Positions 10,071-16,998 of a stretch of 27,808 nt of DNA are shown piece by piece; the stretch's first letter is position 1; each line of letters begins with the position of its first letter. A program made the position numbers and the translations under genes. Source of the stretch: Minisyncoccota bacterium (GTDB lineage: Bacteria > Patescibacteriota > Minisyncoccia > Moranbacterales > GCA-2747515); the NCBI GenBank assembly GCA_938034715.1, contig CALHMM010000017.1, forward strand, positions 1 to 27,808. The letters run 5' to 3'. The notes beneath the pieces were generated by a model that saw only the letters and a program-made list of their open reading frames with translations, was not told where the DNA came from and ran no database searches.

Positions 10071-12725
10071 ATGGGACTACTATCAAAATTTTTTGGATCC
10101 AATGAGAAGGAGATTCGTAAATCACAACCACTCATTGATGCCGTCAACGCACTCGAGGAAGACATGAAGAAGCTTCCTGATGAAAATTTTGCTACTAAAA
10201 CGAGAGAATTTAAAGACCGCATAGCAGCCGGAGAAAGTCTCGATGATATCCTTCCAGAAGCCTTTGCTCTTGTACGCGAGGCAGCGCATCGGGTCATTGG
10301 AGAACGTCACTATGATACACAAATTCTCGGCGGGATAGTCTTACATAGCGGAAAAATTGCAGAAATGAAGACGGGTGAAGGAAAAACTTTAACCTCTACG
10401 CTACCAGTATATCTCAATGCACTTGAAGGAAAAGGTGTTCACATCGTCACGGTAAATGACTATCTCGCAACACGTGACTGCAATTGGATGGGGAGCGTCT
10501 ATACAAAACTTGGTATCACAACTGCCTGCATTACGCATGAGGGTGGGTTTTTATATGAGCTCAACACGCTAGATACAAATGAAGTAAGTATTGAAAACGA
10601 AAATCTCAAAAGCATATCAAAAAAAGAGGCTTACGAAGCAGACGTAACTTATGGGACAAACAACGAATTTGGGTTTGATTACCTTCGTGACAACATGGCC
10701 ACAAACCTAGAGAGAGTAGTTCAGAGAAAACCACATTTCGCTATCGTGGATGAAGTTGACTCAATTCTTATTGATGAAGCCCGTACACCACTCATCATTA
10801 GTGCGCCAGACGATGAATCAACGCTTCTATACAGCCAATTCGCAAGCATTGTTCCACAACTCAAGCCAGATGATGACTATAGCATTGATGAAAAGGAAAA
10901 AGCTGTTTCTATTACTGACAATGGTATCTCCAAGGTAGAAAAAGCTCTCGGCATAGGGAATATCTACGAGGATGGGAAATGGCACTATGTACATCACCTC
11001 GAACAATCACTCAAAGCACAAGTTATCTTTGAACGAGACAAGGATTATATGGTGCGAAAAGGTGAGGTTATAATTGTTGATGAGTTTACTGGTCGCGCAA
11101 TGGAAGGTCGTCGCTATAGCGATGGCTTGCATCAAGCCATTGAAGCTAAGGAAAAAGTCACAGTACAAAGGGAATCCAAAACATTGGCTACAATTACCTT
11201 CCAAAACTACTTCCGCATGTACGAAAAAATTGCTGGCATGACAGGTACTGCTACAACAAGTGCGGAGGAACTACAAAAAGTATACGAACTCGAAGTAGTA
11301 GAAATTACAACAAACAAACAGATTCAGAGAAAGGACTTACCTGATATAATTTACAAAACAGAAGTAGGTAAATTCGCTGCTATCGCAAAAAAAATAAAGG
11401 AGCTACATGAGAAAGGACAGCCAGTTCTAGTAGGTACTGTAGCCATCGAAAAATCGGAAGCCTTATCAGTTGCTCTAGAGAAAGCACATGTACCACACAG
11501 CGTACTAAACGCAAAGTTTCATGAAAAAGAGGCGGAAATAATTGCTAATGCTGGGAAGAAGTCCTCAGTTACAATTGCTACAAACATGGCTGGCCGCGGT
11601 ACAGATATTAAACTTGGCGAAGGCGTAGTTGAACTTGGTGGTCTATACATCATCGGGACAGAGCGTCATGATGCCAGACGTATTGATAATCAACTACGTG
11701 GGCGAAGTGGTCGCCAAGGTGACCCAGGGACAACACAATTTTATATCTCACTCGATGACGAGTTAATGCGACGATTTGGTGGAGATAAACTCAAAGGAAT
11801 CATGGAAAAACTTGGGCTACCTGAGGATCAGCCAATTCAAAATTCTATTATTTCAAAGCAAATTGAGAATGCTCAGAGCAAAATCGAAGGATTTAACTTT
11901 GATCTCAGAAAACACGTACTACAGTATGATGATGTAATCAACAAGCAGCGAGAAGTCATCTACGCGAGAAGACGAAATATTCTGAAAAACGAGAATGTCA
12001 AGAATGAGTATCTAGATATGATTCGAGATGAAGTCGAGTCTGTTGTAAGCTTTCATGCTGTAGAGGGACAACATAAATGGGACATGCAGAAAATCTACGA
12101 TGATATAACAATTCTTTACCCGCTGCCAGACAATGCAAAAAGTAAATTAGAAGGCATCATCGGAGATCCAAAGTTCGATGAAAAAGAATCGATCGGAGCA
12201 ATGATCGAGTATCTTGTTGGTGAGGCAAAGCGAGAATACGGGGCGAAAGAAGTAGAAATCCCAACTGAGACCATGCGTCTAGTTGAAAGGCAAATTCTTC
12301 TGCAAACCATAGACAGACAATGGATGAATCACATCGACACCATCGATCATCTTCGTCAGGGTATCGGTCTCCGCGGGTACGGACAAAGAGATCCACTCAT
12401 TGAGTTCAAAAGAGAGTCATTTGATCTATTTTCAGGGTTAGTGGGCACCATCCGACATGACACGCTTCGCAGTATCTTCCATGTCGCACCCATTGAAAAA
12501 GAACAAGTTTCCCCAGAAATTGCTACCCCACTAAAACAAAGCGATCTAACATTTTCAGGCGCTGACAACATCGCAGGAAGCGGACCTATTCCTGCACAAG
12601 TAGCCCAGCAAGGGACGCCGCAATCTACTGCACCAGCAACAAGTGAAAAATCCATAGGCCGTAATGAGCCATGCAGTTGCGGATCAGGGAAAAAATACAA
12701 GAAATGTCATGGGAAAGTCGCATAA
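10071..12725 (+). CDS. secA: Preprotein translocase ATPase SecA
   Basis: EMKTGEGKT, YGTNNEFGFDYLRDNM, VDEVDSILIDEARTPLIIS, ATNMAGRGTDIKL, RGRSGRQGDPG, C-terminal SEC-C motif GRNEPCSCGSGKKYKKCHG. Confidence 0.99.
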   Translation: MGLLSKFFGSNEKEIRKSQPLIDAVNALEEDMKKLPDENFATKTREFKDRIAAGESLDDILPEAFALVREAAHRVIGERHYDTQILGGIVLHSGKIAEMKTGEGKTLTSTLPVYLNALEGKGVHIVTVNDYLATRDCNWMGSVYTKLGITTACITHEGGFLYELNTLDTNEVSIENENLKSISKKEAYEADVTYGTNNEFGFDYLRDNMATNLERVVQRKPHFAIVDEVDSILIDEARTPLIISAPDDESTLLYSQFASIVPQLKPDDDYSIDEKEKAVSITDNGISKVEKALGIGNIYEDGKWHYVHHLEQSLKAQVIFERDKDYMVRKGEVIIVDEFTGRAMEGRRYSDGLHQAIEAKEKVTVQRESKTLATITFQNYFRMYEKIAGMTGTATTSAEELQKVYELEVVEITTNKQIQRKDLPDIIYKTEVGKFAAIAKKIKELHEKGQPVLVGTVAIEKSEALSVALEKAHVPHSVLNAKFHEKEAEIIANAGKKSSVTIATNMAGRGTDIKLGEGVVELGGLYIIGTERHDARRIDNQLRGRSGRQGDPGTTQFYISLDDELMRRFGGDKLKGIMEKLGLPEDQPIQNSIISKQIENAQSKIEGFNFDLRKHVLQYDDVINKQREVIYARRRNILKNENVKNEYLDMIRDEVESVVSFHAVEGQHKWDMQKIYDDITILYPLPDNAKSKLEGIIGDPKFDEKESIGAMIEYLVGEAKREYGAKEVEIPTETMRLVERQILLQTIDRQWMNHIDTIDHLRQGIGLRGYGQRDPLIEFKRESFDLFSGLVGTIRHDTLRSIFHVAPIEKEQVSPEIATPLKQSDLTFSGADNIAGSGPIPAQVAQQGTPQSTAPATSEKSIGRNEPCSCGSGKKYKKCHGKVA

Positions 12726-12753
12726 CAAAAGTACAAAACGTAAATAAAAACTG

Positions 12754-13269
12754 ATGTCTTACGTGAGACAATTTCCACAAATTACAGCTCCATATTGTAT
12801 TGCACTTGAAAAATCAGTTGGTGCAATAATCTTTCGAGTTGTCCACAAAGATAACCAGCAACAATTACAATTCCTTCTCATGCGTTATCCCCATGGGCAT
12901 TGGGAATTTCCTCGTGGTCATGTGGAGCAAGGCGAAGATCATGAGCATATTACAATGTATAGAGAAATAGAAGAAGAAACAGGTATCTCCAAGAAAGATC
13001 TAAAAGTAGACGGTACATTCAGGGAGCACTTCTGCTTCTCATATAGAGCCCAAGGAGATGAAAAAAATGATCGTATAAAAAACAAGAAATGTCTGTTCAT
13101 ACGCAAAAAGGTTGTTTTCTATCTGGCCCAATCTACAAAAAAAGATATAGAACTTTCACATGAGCACAAAGAATTCACATGGCTACCAATCGAACAAGCG
13201 ATAAATAAACTTACATTTGCAAATGCGAGGAAAATCATCGCCAAAGCAAATAGCCACCTCAGAGAGTAA
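12754..13269 (+). CDS. Nudix hydrolase, Ap4A (asymmetric) hydrolase-like
   Basis: EKSVGAIIF, GHWEFPRGHVEQGE...REIEEETGI, LSHEH..F.WL. Confidence 0.85.
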   Translation: MSYVRQFPQITAPYCIALEKSVGAIIFRVVHKDNQQQLQFLLMRYPHGHWEFPRGHVEQGEDHEHITMYREIEEETGISKKDLKVDGTFREHFCFSYRAQGDEKNDRIKNKKCLFIRKKVVFYLAQSTKKDIELSHEHKEFTWLPIEQAINKLTFANARKIIAKANSHLRE

Positions 13270-13371
13270 CGCACGAAGTACACCAAAAACATCGACAAAA
13301 TCAACACCTAGTACGAATTGTCAAAAGAGGCTATAATACGCAGTATATTATTCACAATTTCGGAAATTTCT

Positions 13372-15108
13372 ATGAAAAATAAACATGTAGTGGGGAAGAT
13401 GCTTTTCCTCATCTTCTTGGTATGCACAGTCGGTGTTCTTGCTTCGGGTAAGATGCCACTTCCGATTACCAATATGCAAAACTGGCTAGACACCTTAAAG
13501 GTTAATCTAGGATTAGATCTACAAGGAGGGCTACATCTTGATTACGAAATTGATTTATCAGACATAGATCCCGCAGATCAAGACGACGCTCTAGCTGCTG
13601 TGCAAGCAGTAATTGAAAGACGTGTTAATGCCATTGGAGTAGGGGAACCAATTGTTCAAATTGCAAATCGAGGACTGGATAAATTTCTTATAGTCGAACT
13701 ACCTGGTGTCAGGAATATTGAGCAAGCGAAAGAGATTATCAAAGAAACGCCATTTCTAGAATTCCGGGAAGAAAGAACGCCAGAAGAAATCACTGCCTAT
13801 TTCGAACCACTAAACACAGAGTCTAAGCAAGGAGCTGATGATGCACTGGCGCGGATAAATAACGGAGAAGATTTTAGCCTCGTACAAAAGGAAGTAGATC
13901 CTTTGGCCATTCTACAAGAATCAGAGAGTGAAGAAAGTAGTGAAAGCCAAAACAAACAGATATTTGTTAAAAAGGGCGTACTCGCTGGAGCTCCAGCAGT
14001 TGAGGCTGTCTTATTTGATGAAGAAGTAGCTCCAAATACTGTATTCCCAGAAATAGTGGAGTCAGAAGTCGCATATCATATCGTCAGAAAAGGTGACATA
14101 AGAGGAGAAGGGGAGGAATTAGAGGTTGGTTATGAATTAATTACATTCATCAAACAAAATCAACGCACAAACCCAGCACAATTATACAAATCTACTGAAC
14201 TAACAGGGGAGTTCCTAGACAAAGCAGAAGTCACTTTTTCACAACAAGGAGCACAGAGACCAGAAGTCTCTATCTTCTTTAATGCCCAAGGTGCAGAGAT
14301 GTTCAAAGATCTCACCGGAAGGTCTATCGGTAAAACGATCGCCATTGCTGTCGATGACCAAATTGTAAGCGCACCTTCAGTCGGAGTTGAATTAGCAGGT
14401 GGACAAGCACAGATCACTGGAAACTTCACAATCGAAGAAGCAACCAATCTCGCAGGCAGACTAAACGAAGGTGCCTTACCAGTACCAATTTCACTAGCGT
14501 CTCAGCAAAGCGTAGAGGCATCACTTGGTGCTCAAGCACTCAACACAAGTCTCAAAGCTGGACTGATCGGACTCGCATTTGTAATGATATACATGATACT
14601 CTTCTACCGTTTCTTTGGATTTATCGCTGCTCTTGCAATTGGATTTTATGCACTTACGCTAATCGCAATCTTCAAGCTCTCCAGCACACTCCCAGCAGGA
14701 CTCTCAATTACCCTGACACTCTCAGGTATAGCAGGTCTGATACTATCCATTGGAATGGCAGTTGACGCAAACATTCTCATATACGAACGGATACACGAGG
14801 AACTGAAGCGTGGCAGGCGATTGCATCACGCCATAGAAGAAGGTTTTTCCCGAGCATGGACAGCCATCAGAGACGGTAATATTTCAACTATTCTCACTTG
14901 TCTCATTCTGACAATCATAGGAACAGGGTTTGTAAAAGGCTTCGCCTTAATTCTGATTATTGGTGTTCTACTTTCGATGGTTACAGCTGTAGTCCTTGTA
15001 AAAATAGTAATCCGAGCTAGTGCTGGTAGTTGGCTTTCCAGTAGGCCATGGCTCATAGCTAGAGGGATTAAGTCAATCGACATTACGCCAGACGATAAAA
15101 AACTGTAA
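13372..15108 (+). CDS. secD: Protein translocase subunit SecD with a large insertion in P1
   Basis: LGLDLQGG, IERRVNAIGVGEP, IVELPG, LNEGALP, ILSIGMAVDANILIYERIHEE. ATG 13372 preferred because TATAAT at 13332-13337 lies inside the longer TTG-start frame. Confidence 0.97.
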   Translation: MKNKHVVGKMLFLIFLVCTVGVLASGKMPLPITNMQNWLDTLKVNLGLDLQGGLHLDYEIDLSDIDPADQDDALAAVQAVIERRVNAIGVGEPIVQIANRGLDKFLIVELPGVRNIEQAKEIIKETPFLEFREERTPEEITAYFEPLNTESKQGADDALARINNGEDFSLVQKEVDPLAILQESESEESSESQNKQIFVKKGVLAGAPAVEAVLFDEEVAPNTVFPEIVESEVAYHIVRKGDIRGEGEELEVGYELITFIKQNQRTNPAQLYKSTELTGEFLDKAEVTFSQQGAQRPEVSIFFNAQGAEMFKDLTGRSIGKTIAIAVDDQIVSAPSVGVELAGGQAQITGNFTIEEATNLAGRLNEGALPVPISLASQQSVEASLGAQALNTSLKAGLIGLAFVMIYMILFYRFFGFIAALAIGFYALTLIAIFKLSSTLPAGLSITLTLSGIAGLILSIGMAVDANILIYERIHEELKRGRRLHHAIEEGFSRAWTAIRDGNISTILTCLILTIIGTGFVKGFALILIIGVLLSMVTAVVLVKIVIRASAGSWLSSRPWLIARGIKSIDITPDDKKL

Positions 15109-15131
15109 CTTTAATCTACATTTTCAAAACT

Positions 15132-16049
15132 ATGTACGATATTATTGGAAAAAGGAAGTATACCTATTTATTCTCAGCACTCCTGATGCTAATAAGCATT
15201 GGATCACTTGCCATTTTTGGCCTAAAATTAGGCATAGACTTTGTCGGAGGGACACTACTAGAAGTGCAATCATCCAACGCAAAAGATTTGTCTAGACAAG
15301 CTCTCTGCCAAAAAATTTCACCAAAGATCTGCACAGAAAGTTTCATCGTTCAAGAATCTGAAGACAATAAGGTCATCATCAGGTACAAACAATCCAATGA
15401 ATCAGAAAACCAGGAGGTGCTAGCAGCCATTAGATTGGCAGACCCTGAAATGGAGATTCTGCGAACTGATTTTATCGGAGCTAGAGTTTCTGAGCAATTA
15501 AAGTCCAACACAATCACAGCAATTCTTCTGTCAATTGCAGTAATACTGATATACATAGCATTTGCCTTTAGAAGAATCTCGTTTCCTGTTTCATCATGGA
15601 GTTATGGATTTAGCGCAATCGTTGCATTGGTACACGATGTCCTCATTGTTCTTGGATTCTTTGCAGTTTTCGGACATTTCTTTGATGTAGAGATCGGCAT
15701 TCCATTTATTGCAGCACTCCTTACAATATTAGGTTACTCAATTAACGACACAATCGTCGTATACGATCGCGTACGAGAAAATATTCTTCGAACAAAGAAT
15801 CTTTCCAAGTTCCCACAATTACTCAACCAGTCACTCAATGAAACTTTAGCAAGATCCATGAATACATCCTTGACTGTAGTGGTCGTCCTCGTTGCAATGA
15901 TTATCTGGGGCTCGCCATCACTACTGTGGTTCTCTGTGGCATTACTCATCGGCGTCCTCGCAGGAACGTATTCGTCAATCTTTGTTGCGACAGCTCTTGT
16001 TGTGACTATATACAACTACAAAAAGCGTAAGGGACTATTAAGAGAGTAG
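15132..16049 (+). CDS. secF: Protein translocase subunit SecF
   Basis: LGIDFVGGT, ALVHDV, LTILGYSINDTIVVYDRVRE, ETLARSMNTS, GTYSSIFVA. Confidence 0.97.
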   Translation: MYDIIGKRKYTYLFSALLMLISIGSLAIFGLKLGIDFVGGTLLEVQSSNAKDLSRQALCQKISPKICTESFIVQESEDNKVIIRYKQSNESENQEVLAAIRLADPEMEILRTDFIGARVSEQLKSNTITAILLSIAVILIYIAFAFRRISFPVSSWSYGFSAIVALVHDVLIVLGFFAVFGHFFDVEIGIPFIAALLTILGYSINDTIVVYDRVRENILRTKNLSKFPQLLNQSLNETLARSMNTSLTVVVVLVAMIIWGSPSLLWFSVALLIGVLAGTYSSIFVATALVVTIYNYKKRKGLLRE

Positions 16050-16085
16050 GAGTGAAGCGCAGTACTAATTTTATCAAATACGCAC

Positions 16086-16466
16086 ATGTTTAACATATTC
16101 AACAAGAAAAAGAAGGATGAAATCCAAATTGAAAAAAAGGAAAAAGTGGACGAGCAAATAAAATCAGCAGAATCCATGATGGGTGGGCAACTACCCGAAA
16201 TTACAGATGAAATGATCGATCAAATGCTAGAAGGAAATCTGCCAGGAATGCCCAAACTAGGGCCTATGCAAAAAATGGCAGTTAAGGGCATAAAAAAAAT
16301 GAGTCCAGACAAGAGGAGAGAGGTGTTCGCTCAGGCAATGGGGAAAATGCAAGAAGATGGTGGAGAGTCAAAAGAGGAAATGCTCAAACAGATTGAACAA
16401 ATGCGAGAGGCAGGACAGCTAAACTCAAAGCAGTACAAGATCGCTAAGAAGAGGCTGGGGTTATAG
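16086..16466 (+). CDS. Met-rich small helical protein with a C-terminal SHOCT-like segment
   Basis: 13 Met in 126 aa by hand count; no Trp, Cys or His; ends LKQIEQMREAGQLNSKQYKIAKKRL; 36 nt after secF. Confidence 0.75.
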   Translation: MFNIFNKKKKDEIQIEKKEKVDEQIKSAESMMGGQLPEITDEMIDQMLEGNLPGMPKLGPMQKMAVKGIKKMSPDKRREVFAQAMGKMQEDGGESKEEMLKQIEQMREAGQLNSKQYKIAKKRLGL

Positions 16467-16596: not shown

Positions 16597-16998
16597 ATGA
16601 AATACCTTTTTATATGCGCAAGTATATTTGTGCTAGCAGGATGCGGCTCCCTCACTAAAAGTGGTGTTGAATCAGACGTTGAAATCGATGCTCCATCAGA
16701 GATCGCAGCACAGAGTGATGAGCTGTCACAACGACAAAATGACGAATTATTCGCACCAGTTGAAGATAATCGGATTAACCTTGAATCTGGCACCACAACT
16801 GAAACTGTTCTAAATATTGAACCTGAGCAGCAAGATAACACTGAATCAGAAAACCCTACCGATCAAATACAAGAGCGCGAAACATCCCAAGTCGATATTA
16901 CACCAAAAGTTGTAGATTCTATCACCAAAAAAGTATCTCCAGTCACAGGACCAGCAATTCCAGAGCAAGAAATGTTGGAGATTCTCAGTAACCAATAG
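16597..16998 (+). CDS. Putative lipoprotein, acidic and probably disordered
   Basis: MKYLFICASIFVLAG-C: basic N-terminus, hydrophobic core and lipobox LAGC (Cys16); mature part rich in E/D/Q/T/P. Confidence 0.7.
   Translation: MKYLFICASIFVLAGCGSLTKSGVESDVEIDAPSEIAAQSDELSQRQNDELFAPVEDNRINLESGTTTETVLNIEPEQQDNTESENPTDQIQERETSQVDITPKVVDSITKKVSPVTGPAIPEQEMLEILSNQ

Follow-up and report, generated by a model that had tools for sequence, protein, structure and literature searches.

We examined a stretch of 27,808 nucleotides from a Minisyncoccota bacterium of the order Moranbacterales (assembly GCA_938034715.1, contig CALHMM010000017.1), here referred to as the window, and focused on a string of protein export genes within it. 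The genome that holds the window is ultra-small, comprises 953 kb in 109 contigs, and is 92% complete, and homologues of the window's proteins carry the names Candidatus Moranbacteria or Moraniibacteriota. Between positions 10071 and 16466, five co-directional open reading frames (ORFs) lie on the plus strand, namely, secA, a Nudix hydrolase gene, secD, secF, and a methionine-rich ORF of 126 amino acids, with intergenic gaps of 28, 102, 23, and 36 nt. A first-pass annotation had proposed that these genes form a self-contained protein export system, with an outer foldase module built into SecD and a Met-rich protein that acts as a cytoplasmic holdase or targeting factor; the gene positions and spacing that it reported are correct. 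It had also seen no terminator hairpin and no yajC in the cluster. A consensus scan, which is weak evidence on this point, called no terminator-like hairpin in any of the plus-strand intergenic gaps, and YajC was found neither in the window nor in the rest of the genome, nor above the cutoff in any of the 31 genomes of the order.

The secA gene (positions 10071 to 12725) encodes a protein of 884 amino acids that matches NF009538 with 1124 bits (cutoff, 814), contains all five SecA Pfam domains (SecA_DEAD, PP_bind, P-loop_SecA, SecA_SW, and SEC-C), and ends in the SEC-C zinc-finger motif. It is followed by the Nudix hydrolase gene (positions 12754 to 13269; 171 amino acids; PF00293 with 59 bits, 5e-16), which is also located between secA and secD in relatives (L007 and L008). 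The secD gene (positions 13372 to 15108) encodes 578 amino acids when read from the ATG at 13372, as in the public gene call P0080, while translation from an in-frame TTG at 13318 would make the protein 18 residues longer. SecD matches TIGR01129 with 369 bits (cutoff, 244.4), and its Pfam domains are, in order, PF21760 (SecD_1st), PF22599 (P1 head), and PF02355 (SecD_SecF_C, the C-terminal six-transmembrane domain). The secF gene (positions 15132 to 16049; 305 amino acids) matches TIGR00966 with 278 bits (cutoff, 160). The last gene of the string (positions 16086 to 16466) encodes the 126-amino-acid protein, which has 13 methionines and belongs to no Pfam or NCBIfam family.

SecD contains approximately 105 to 125 extra residues between SecD_1st (residues 95 to 152) and the P1 head (residues 280 to 389), and the TIGR01129 model, with its 397 positions, aligns to residues 64 to 564 of the ORF read from the TTG. 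This insert (positions 13774 to 14157, plus strand; approximately residues 135 to 262 of the 578-residue protein) is degenerate. On its own, it reaches 14.1 bits over 22 residues against Rotamase_3, below the Pfam gathering score of 22.5, and a phmmer search with the insert alone gave no match in the PDB. However, PF00639 and PF13616 match at exactly the same site in nearly every one of the 120 closest SecD proteins, and the window insert shares 35% identity (E = 1e-18) with the Pfam-positive insert of one SecD protein, P0087. A profile built from 58 SecD inserts matches SurA (5.5e-18), PpiC (7e-15), and PrsA (2e-14), and for a profile restricted to the six sequences of the window's own clade, the top three PDB matches are all parvulins, although these are weak (E = 0.027 to 0.42, with PrsA at 0.027). 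Judged from these alignments and profiles, the insert is a descendant of a parvulin. Its motifs follow each other in the order GEDF..LA, DPGS.D.GGDLGF, VPEFD.VLF, FGWHIIKK, and then EV.A.HIL, and HMMER aligns this stretch to the P1 domain of SurA and on into the first strand of P2. Since the strand that normally comes first in a parvulin (EV.A.HIL) is located here after the last one, the insert appears to be a circularly permuted parvulin.

Among the 120 SecD homologues, the HIL histidine is present in 100, the WHII histidine in 106, and an Asp or Glu at GGDLG in 93, and the complete catalytic His/Asp/His set is kept in 73. In the window clade (P0080 to P0085), the HIL histidine is replaced by Leu and the GGDLG aspartate by Lys or Gln, a variable acidic Ser/Glu-rich loop takes the place of the GGDLG loop, and the WHII histidine is retained. 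Hence, the idea of a foldase module within SecD holds for the parvulin origin of the insert but not for its catalytic residues in this clade.

These losses could mean that, in the window genus, the insert is a functionless remnant that is decaying after a separate PrsA-like parvulin took over. The absence of one catalytic histidine and of the aspartate, the variable acidic loop, and the subthreshold Pfam score would fit such a decay, as would the stand-alone parvulin of the congeners and the more rapid divergence of the insert relative to the remainder of SecD (74, 63, 60, and 52% identity compared with 84, 69, 68, and 66%). We nevertheless regard this explanation as unlikely, as the insert is present at full length in all six species of the clade with no accumulated deletions, and 47 positions of the 151-residue aligned stretch (the insert plus flanking SecD strands) are invariant among them, including the hydrophobic strands and the second histidine. 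Moreover, noncatalytic parvulin domains have been described as working chaperone modules in PpiD and SurA, in the latter case its first parvulin domain. We therefore favor a different view of the insert in the window genus, namely, that it is most likely a noncatalytic substrate-binding or structural module, because two of the three catalytic residues have been lost and an acidic loop has been gained while the hydrophobic strands are conserved. In most of the order, where the catalytic His/Asp/His set is present, the insert probably assists chains that emerge from SecYEG, as a foldase or a holdase. That the module was kept after catalysis was lost in the window genus points to a binding rather than an isomerase role.

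The SecD_1st-Rotamase-P1_head architecture also occurs in the SecD or SecDF proteins of five other lineages of the candidate phyla radiation (CPR), within this class and in others. In two of these proteins (L029 in genome G149 and L030 in genome G203), a SecD of 821 amino acids or a SecDF of 1035 amino acids, the insert is larger (approximately 245 to 345 amino acids), and Rotamase is matched along its entire Pfam model, beginning at position 1, with no visible permutation. In one relative, the stand-alone parvulin gene appears to lie directly upstream of the parvulin-bearing secD (G006:C14:10642-12434), an arrangement that may offer a clue to the origin of the fusion or of its duplication. 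We found no paper in the literature that describes a SecD-parvulin fusion, and the decayed state of the insert in the window genus is new here.

Compared with canonical SecDF, as known from Thermus thermophilus (3AQP and 5YHF) and from the E. coli yajC-secD-secF locus, the proteins studied here share the 12-transmembrane RND-type arrangement of SecD and SecF, the P1 base and head, the GG motifs, the membrane Asp/Arg motifs, and the adjacency of the two genes. They differ in the parvulin-derived domain of approximately 125 amino acids between P1 base and head, in the absence of YajC, and in the genes around them, with secA and the Nudix gene directly upstream and the gene for a soluble Met-rich protein after secF. 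Parvulin-type chaperones that act in trans at the translocon have been described, such as PpiD-YfgM with SecYEG (PMC9643414) and SurA with the Sec holotranslocon (PMC9987972), and the Mycoplasma proteins Mpn444 and Mpn436 were cross-linked to SecD (bioRxiv 10.1101/2024.09.05.611430). These systems and PrsA likewise place a parvulin-fold module where exported chains leave the channel, and the domain of PpiD and the P1 domain of SurA are noncatalytic, as the window insert probably is. In contrast to these trans-acting parvulins, the module described here is part of the SecD polypeptide and has a permuted strand order, and the relatives keep a separate membrane-anchored parvulin in addition.

The small protein encoded after secF has a methionine content of 10.3%, compared with 2.1% genome-wide, which is the highest of the 467 ORFs of 100 to 200 amino acids that the genome contains. 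It has 75 close homologues (48 to 87% identity), and a HMMER search of 1.84 billion representatives added 23 further clusters only, with lengths of 67 to 190 amino acids and not a single fusion to another domain; a protein-atlas look-up returned unnamed Moranbacteria clusters only. The high methionine content is a property of the whole family (median of 10.9% among close members and 9.6% among distant ones), whose median pI is 9.6. Its members have in common an N-terminal hydrophobic-polybasic motif, M-x2-4-[FL]F-K3-5, which leads through a variable, charged linker to a core of approximately 75 amino acids with a bi-helical, SHOCT-type end (...SGQ[ILM]...Q...AKK.LGL). PF09851 (SHOCT) is matched by 7 of the 54 family members, with a best value of 6.8e-6 and the window copy below the reporting level, and a fold search of the AFDB clusters retrieved only family members and SHOCT-named proteins. 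The C-terminal bi-helical motif of the family resembles that of SHOCT proteins, whereas the Met-rich core and the N-terminal motif lie outside SHOCT. SHOCT domains have been suggested to function in oligomerization or nucleic acid binding (Eberhardt 2013, PMC3581485) and, in a more recent proposal, to tether domains to the inner membrane leaflet (PMC11237479).

In the AlphaFold2 model, the small protein folds into six helices (pLDDT of 76.6), on which methionines are spaced at i, i+3/4, and i+7, and across the family, the methionine positions are conserved on helix faces rather than scattered. No hydrophobic segment or signal peptide was found in its sequence, and it should therefore be cytoplasmic. 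YajC is likewise a small protein that is encoded with secDF; however, it has a transmembrane helix and is encoded upstream of secD, whereas the Met-rich protein is all helical, is devoid of a hydrophobic segment, and is encoded downstream of secF, and it gave no match to the YajC family PF02699.

When the window was compared with the corresponding locus on a 1.5-Mb contig from a relative (L007), the small protein was the most conserved of the eight proteins compared, with 71% identity, followed by SecA (69%), PheS (67%), SecF (59%), PheT (51%), SecD (49%), Nudix (48%), and TyrS (37%). As judged from this comparison, the small gene is a real gene that is under strong purifying selection. It is present in 29 of the 31 genomes of the order, and in a sample of the class, it was found in all 5 genomes of the order (including that of the window) and in none of 116 genomes from other orders. 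New findings on the small protein are this order-wide census, its conservation, the putative assignment of its C terminus to SHOCT, and the lack of Ffh homology in the tests reported below.

The position of the small gene next to secDF is largely kept in the relatives. In approximately 21 of the 29 genomes, a comparison of coordinates places it on the same strand as the SecD parvulin and 2 to 2.8 kb further downstream. At L008, the order is NUDIX-SecD(Rotamase)-SecF homologue, and the small protein is only 41% identical to that of the window and yet is encoded 38 nt from secF; in G010, the gene directly follows a SecDF fusion. At L007, SecA, NUDIX, an ORF of 87 amino acids, SecD(Rotamase), and the SecF homologue are followed by tyrS, pheS, and pheT. 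This 87-amino-acid ORF (L007, 6944 to 7207) has two hydrophobic segments, belongs to no Pfam family, and has no counterpart in the window. The predicted link of the Met-rich gene with secDF is thus borne out by synteny in most relatives. It does not extend to the SecD insert, which is also found in lineages that do not have the Met-rich gene: G023 has the insert and no small gene, and in G073, G105, G133, G165, G149, and G203, the insert is present while the small gene is unmatched or the genome lies outside the range of the small-gene search.

With regard to the factors that deliver proteins to the translocon, the window genome encodes SecY, SecG, and one YidC, which has a charged Met/Lys-rich cytoplasmic loop and no long C-terminal tail. 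A second YidC copy was considered and rejected, as the two matches (C61:5934-6578 and C104:3-434; L012 and L013) are the same sequence at contig ends. SecB and SecE were not found in the genome, and neither were the SRP54 M domain, the GTPase domain, or the RNA of the signal recognition particle (SRP). We considered that the lack of SRP54 matches might be a tool artifact and rejected this, since a phmmer search with E. coli Ffh (NC_000913) against all six-frame ORFs returned nothing at E values of up to 10, and a motif scan found DTAGR in no ORF of the genome and TKxDG absent. Weak P-loop matches aside, the SRP GTPase domain is also missing from the 30 relatives. It is absent, too, from 121 genomes sampled from the class and from 151 sampled from the phylum, while 14 of 14 control genomes were matched. 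In total, Ffh, FtsY, and SRP RNA were found neither in the window genome nor in approximately 300 sampled genomes of the phylum. This agrees with the literature: Nelson and Stegen (2015, PMC4508563) reported that ffh and ffs are absent from all Parcubacteria genomes and proposed that a charged region of YidC compensates, and the absence of SRP was repeated by Moreira et al. (2021, PMC8080830). A genome-wide look at these factors, as the first-pass annotation had suggested, thus showed SRP, SecB, and YajC to be missing, but the loss of SRP is not specific to this cluster, as it is phylum-wide and already published.

Other chaperones are retained in the lineage. All 30 relatives, three congeners among them, encode trigger factor, and in nearly all of them, a second parvulin match is found in a frame of 312 to 406 amino acids that is separate from SecD; all three of these frames that were inspected begin with a hydrophobic N-terminal segment. 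The window assembly itself gave no trigger factor match and no Pfam-level parvulin. A loss of trigger factor and PrsA from the window genome was nevertheless rejected, with both being present in all congeners and the assembly being incomplete and fragmented. Assembly gaps are the best explanation, because not only the congeners' separate parvulin gene but also its neighbor lack a tblastn match in the window assembly. With trigger factor and a membrane-anchored parvulin retained outside the cluster, the five genes do not make up a complete export system on their own, and the proposal of a self-contained, streamlined translocon is not supported.

In a lineage that is devoid of Ffh, FtsY, and SRP RNA, a Met-rich protein encoded next to secF invites the question of whether it stands in for SRP and FtsY. 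In such a scenario, it would act as a receptor or holdase that is tethered to the membrane and uses its Met-lined helices to capture signal peptides or transmembrane segments and to pass them on to SecA, SecYEG, or YidC. The roughly 10% methionine throughout the family and its spacing along the predicted helices, the N-terminal hydrophobic-polybasic motif, the SHOCT end, the position after secF, and a conservation as strong as that of SecA are all in line with this, and the small protein resembles the M domain of Ffh/SRP54 in its Met-rich amphipathic helices, its Lys-rich composition, and local motifs (KMSPDKR versus SMTMKER). However, it differs from Ffh/SRP54 in having no detectable homology, fold match, NG domain, or SRP RNA. 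It had no Pfam match to PF02978 at E values of up to 10, and the possibility that it is a remnant of the Ffh M domain was rejected, as an hhalign comparison of a 54-sequence profile with E. coli Ffh gave a probability of 0.2%. Furthermore, the family is restricted to one order, while the lack of SRP extends to the entire phylum as sampled, and the small protein therefore cannot be a general solution to the loss of SRP. The compensation proposed in the literature, the charged loop of YidC, is present here, and trigger factor is retained. Together, these points make an SRP/FtsY stand-in improbable. We give even slightly less credence to the more specific version in which the membrane-tethered Met-rich SHOCT protein is a receptor for signal sequences and transmembrane segments that feeds SecA, SecYEG, SecDF, or YidC and thus is a nonhomologous, RNA-free, and GTPase-free replacement for co-translational targeting. 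The holdase or targeting role assigned to the protein in the first-pass annotation found no direct support, given the lack of Ffh homology and of a fold match. Nonetheless, none of the three outcomes that the first-pass annotation named as refuting its proposal was obtained, as the small gene keeps its place next to secDF in most relatives, the insert resembles a parvulin, and part of the targeting set is missing. The original idea survives in a weakened form.

The explanation that we favor, and to which we give slightly better than even chances, is that the locus is a conserved Moranbacterales string, secA-nudix-secD-secF-small gene, that works as follows. SecD would be a normal subunit of the proton-driven SecDF motor, with the membrane motifs GMAVDANIL in SecD and NDTIVVYDRVRE in SecF kept, and with a parvulin domain spliced between P1 base and P1 head that serves exported chains in the manner discussed above. 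The small protein would be located in the cytoplasm at the inner face of the membrane, as suggested by its N-terminal hydrophobic-polybasic motif together with its SHOCT-type C terminus. The N-terminal motif resembles, in its pattern, the lipid-binding N terminus of SecA, which makes a location beneath the membrane plausible. The small protein is probably coexpressed with SecDF and could act, via amphipathic helices with Met-rich faces, as a lineage-specific accessory factor of the Sec system. We modestly favor such a Sec-associated accessory role as the most likely single reading for this protein.

Several observations weigh against this explanation. The model of the small protein has a pTM of only 0.48, and when this moderately confident model was compared with the PDB by Foldseek, the best E value was 0.64, with no SRP54 chain and no STI1-like match. 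In G021, the order is secA, a transposase-like ORF of 214 amino acids, the small gene, and, further on, tyrS, with the SecD parvulin match being on another contig, and in G007 and G025, the small gene is found among unrelated genes. The string also holds the Nudix gene, and tyrS, pheS, and pheT follow downstream in relatives as well; because these genes travel with the block, the synteny may reflect slow rearrangement rather than shared function. Lastly, the sequencing runs that contain the locus are DNA runs from marine metagenomes only. A co-folding run with SecD, SecF, and residues 10 to 126 of the small protein gave a score of 0.00, which counts neither for nor against an interaction. In the G021 locus (L035; G021:C29, 3699 to 7353), the transposase-like ORF is located where other genomes have nudix-secD-secF, and the region resembles a rearrangement scar.

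In light of this, the small gene could be without any role in secretion and encode a generic SHOCT protein beneath the membrane or a Met-rich oxidant buffer that happens to lie in a conserved gene order. The presence of Nudix, tyrS, and pheST in the same synteny block and the uncoupling from secDF in three genomes would be expected under this explanation, and proteins with SHOCT domains are known from a wide range of unrelated contexts (PMC3581485 and PMC11237479). On the other hand, the small gene follows secF closely (after 36 nt here and 38 nt at L008), retains this position where identity has dropped to 41%, and is located beside secA even in G021. Similarly, the conservation of methionines on helix faces and the absence of msr genes near the Met-rich gene do not fit well with an oxidant buffer or a generic SHOCT protein. 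We therefore consider a lack of any secretion role possible but on the whole unlikely. As far as gene order can tell, the link between the small gene and secDF is strong but not absolute, and conserved gene order may account for some of it.

With regard to the wider meaning of a Sec-associated string of this kind, the fusion of SecD with a parvulin is a natural case in which a parvulin module is hard-wired to the SecDF motor, and it supports models in which chaperones of the PpiD, PrsA, or SurA type dock on the translocon. For the targeting of membrane and secreted proteins without SRP in the CPR, the charged loop of YidC is the sole published suggestion that we found. The Met-rich protein, which is as conserved as SecA and usually colocated with secDF, is a testable candidate for a secretion helper, with its value being limited by its occurrence in a single order.

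The Sec genes are preceded in the window by mreB, mreC, and the genes for PBP2 and murJ and are followed by an ORF of 133 amino acids, tyrS, a PDT domain, pheS, and pheT. The 133-amino-acid ORF (positions 16597 to 16998), which comes after the Met-rich gene, belongs to no Pfam family, and at L007, a peptidoglycan-binding deacetylase is found in its place. The SEC-C motif of SecA binds SecB in proteobacteria. We noticed that this C-terminal Cys-Cys-Cys-His zinc finger is kept in the window (positions 12650 to 12725), although the genome has no detectable SecB. Finally, the 102-nt gap before secD contains an exact TATAAT hexamer (positions 13332 to 13337, plus strand), as read from the sequence; there is no good -35 element at the proper spacing, and the consensus scan did not pick up the hexamer. 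If it belongs to an internal promoter, as is possible, secD, secF, and the small gene may have a promoter of their own, apart from that of secA-nudix.

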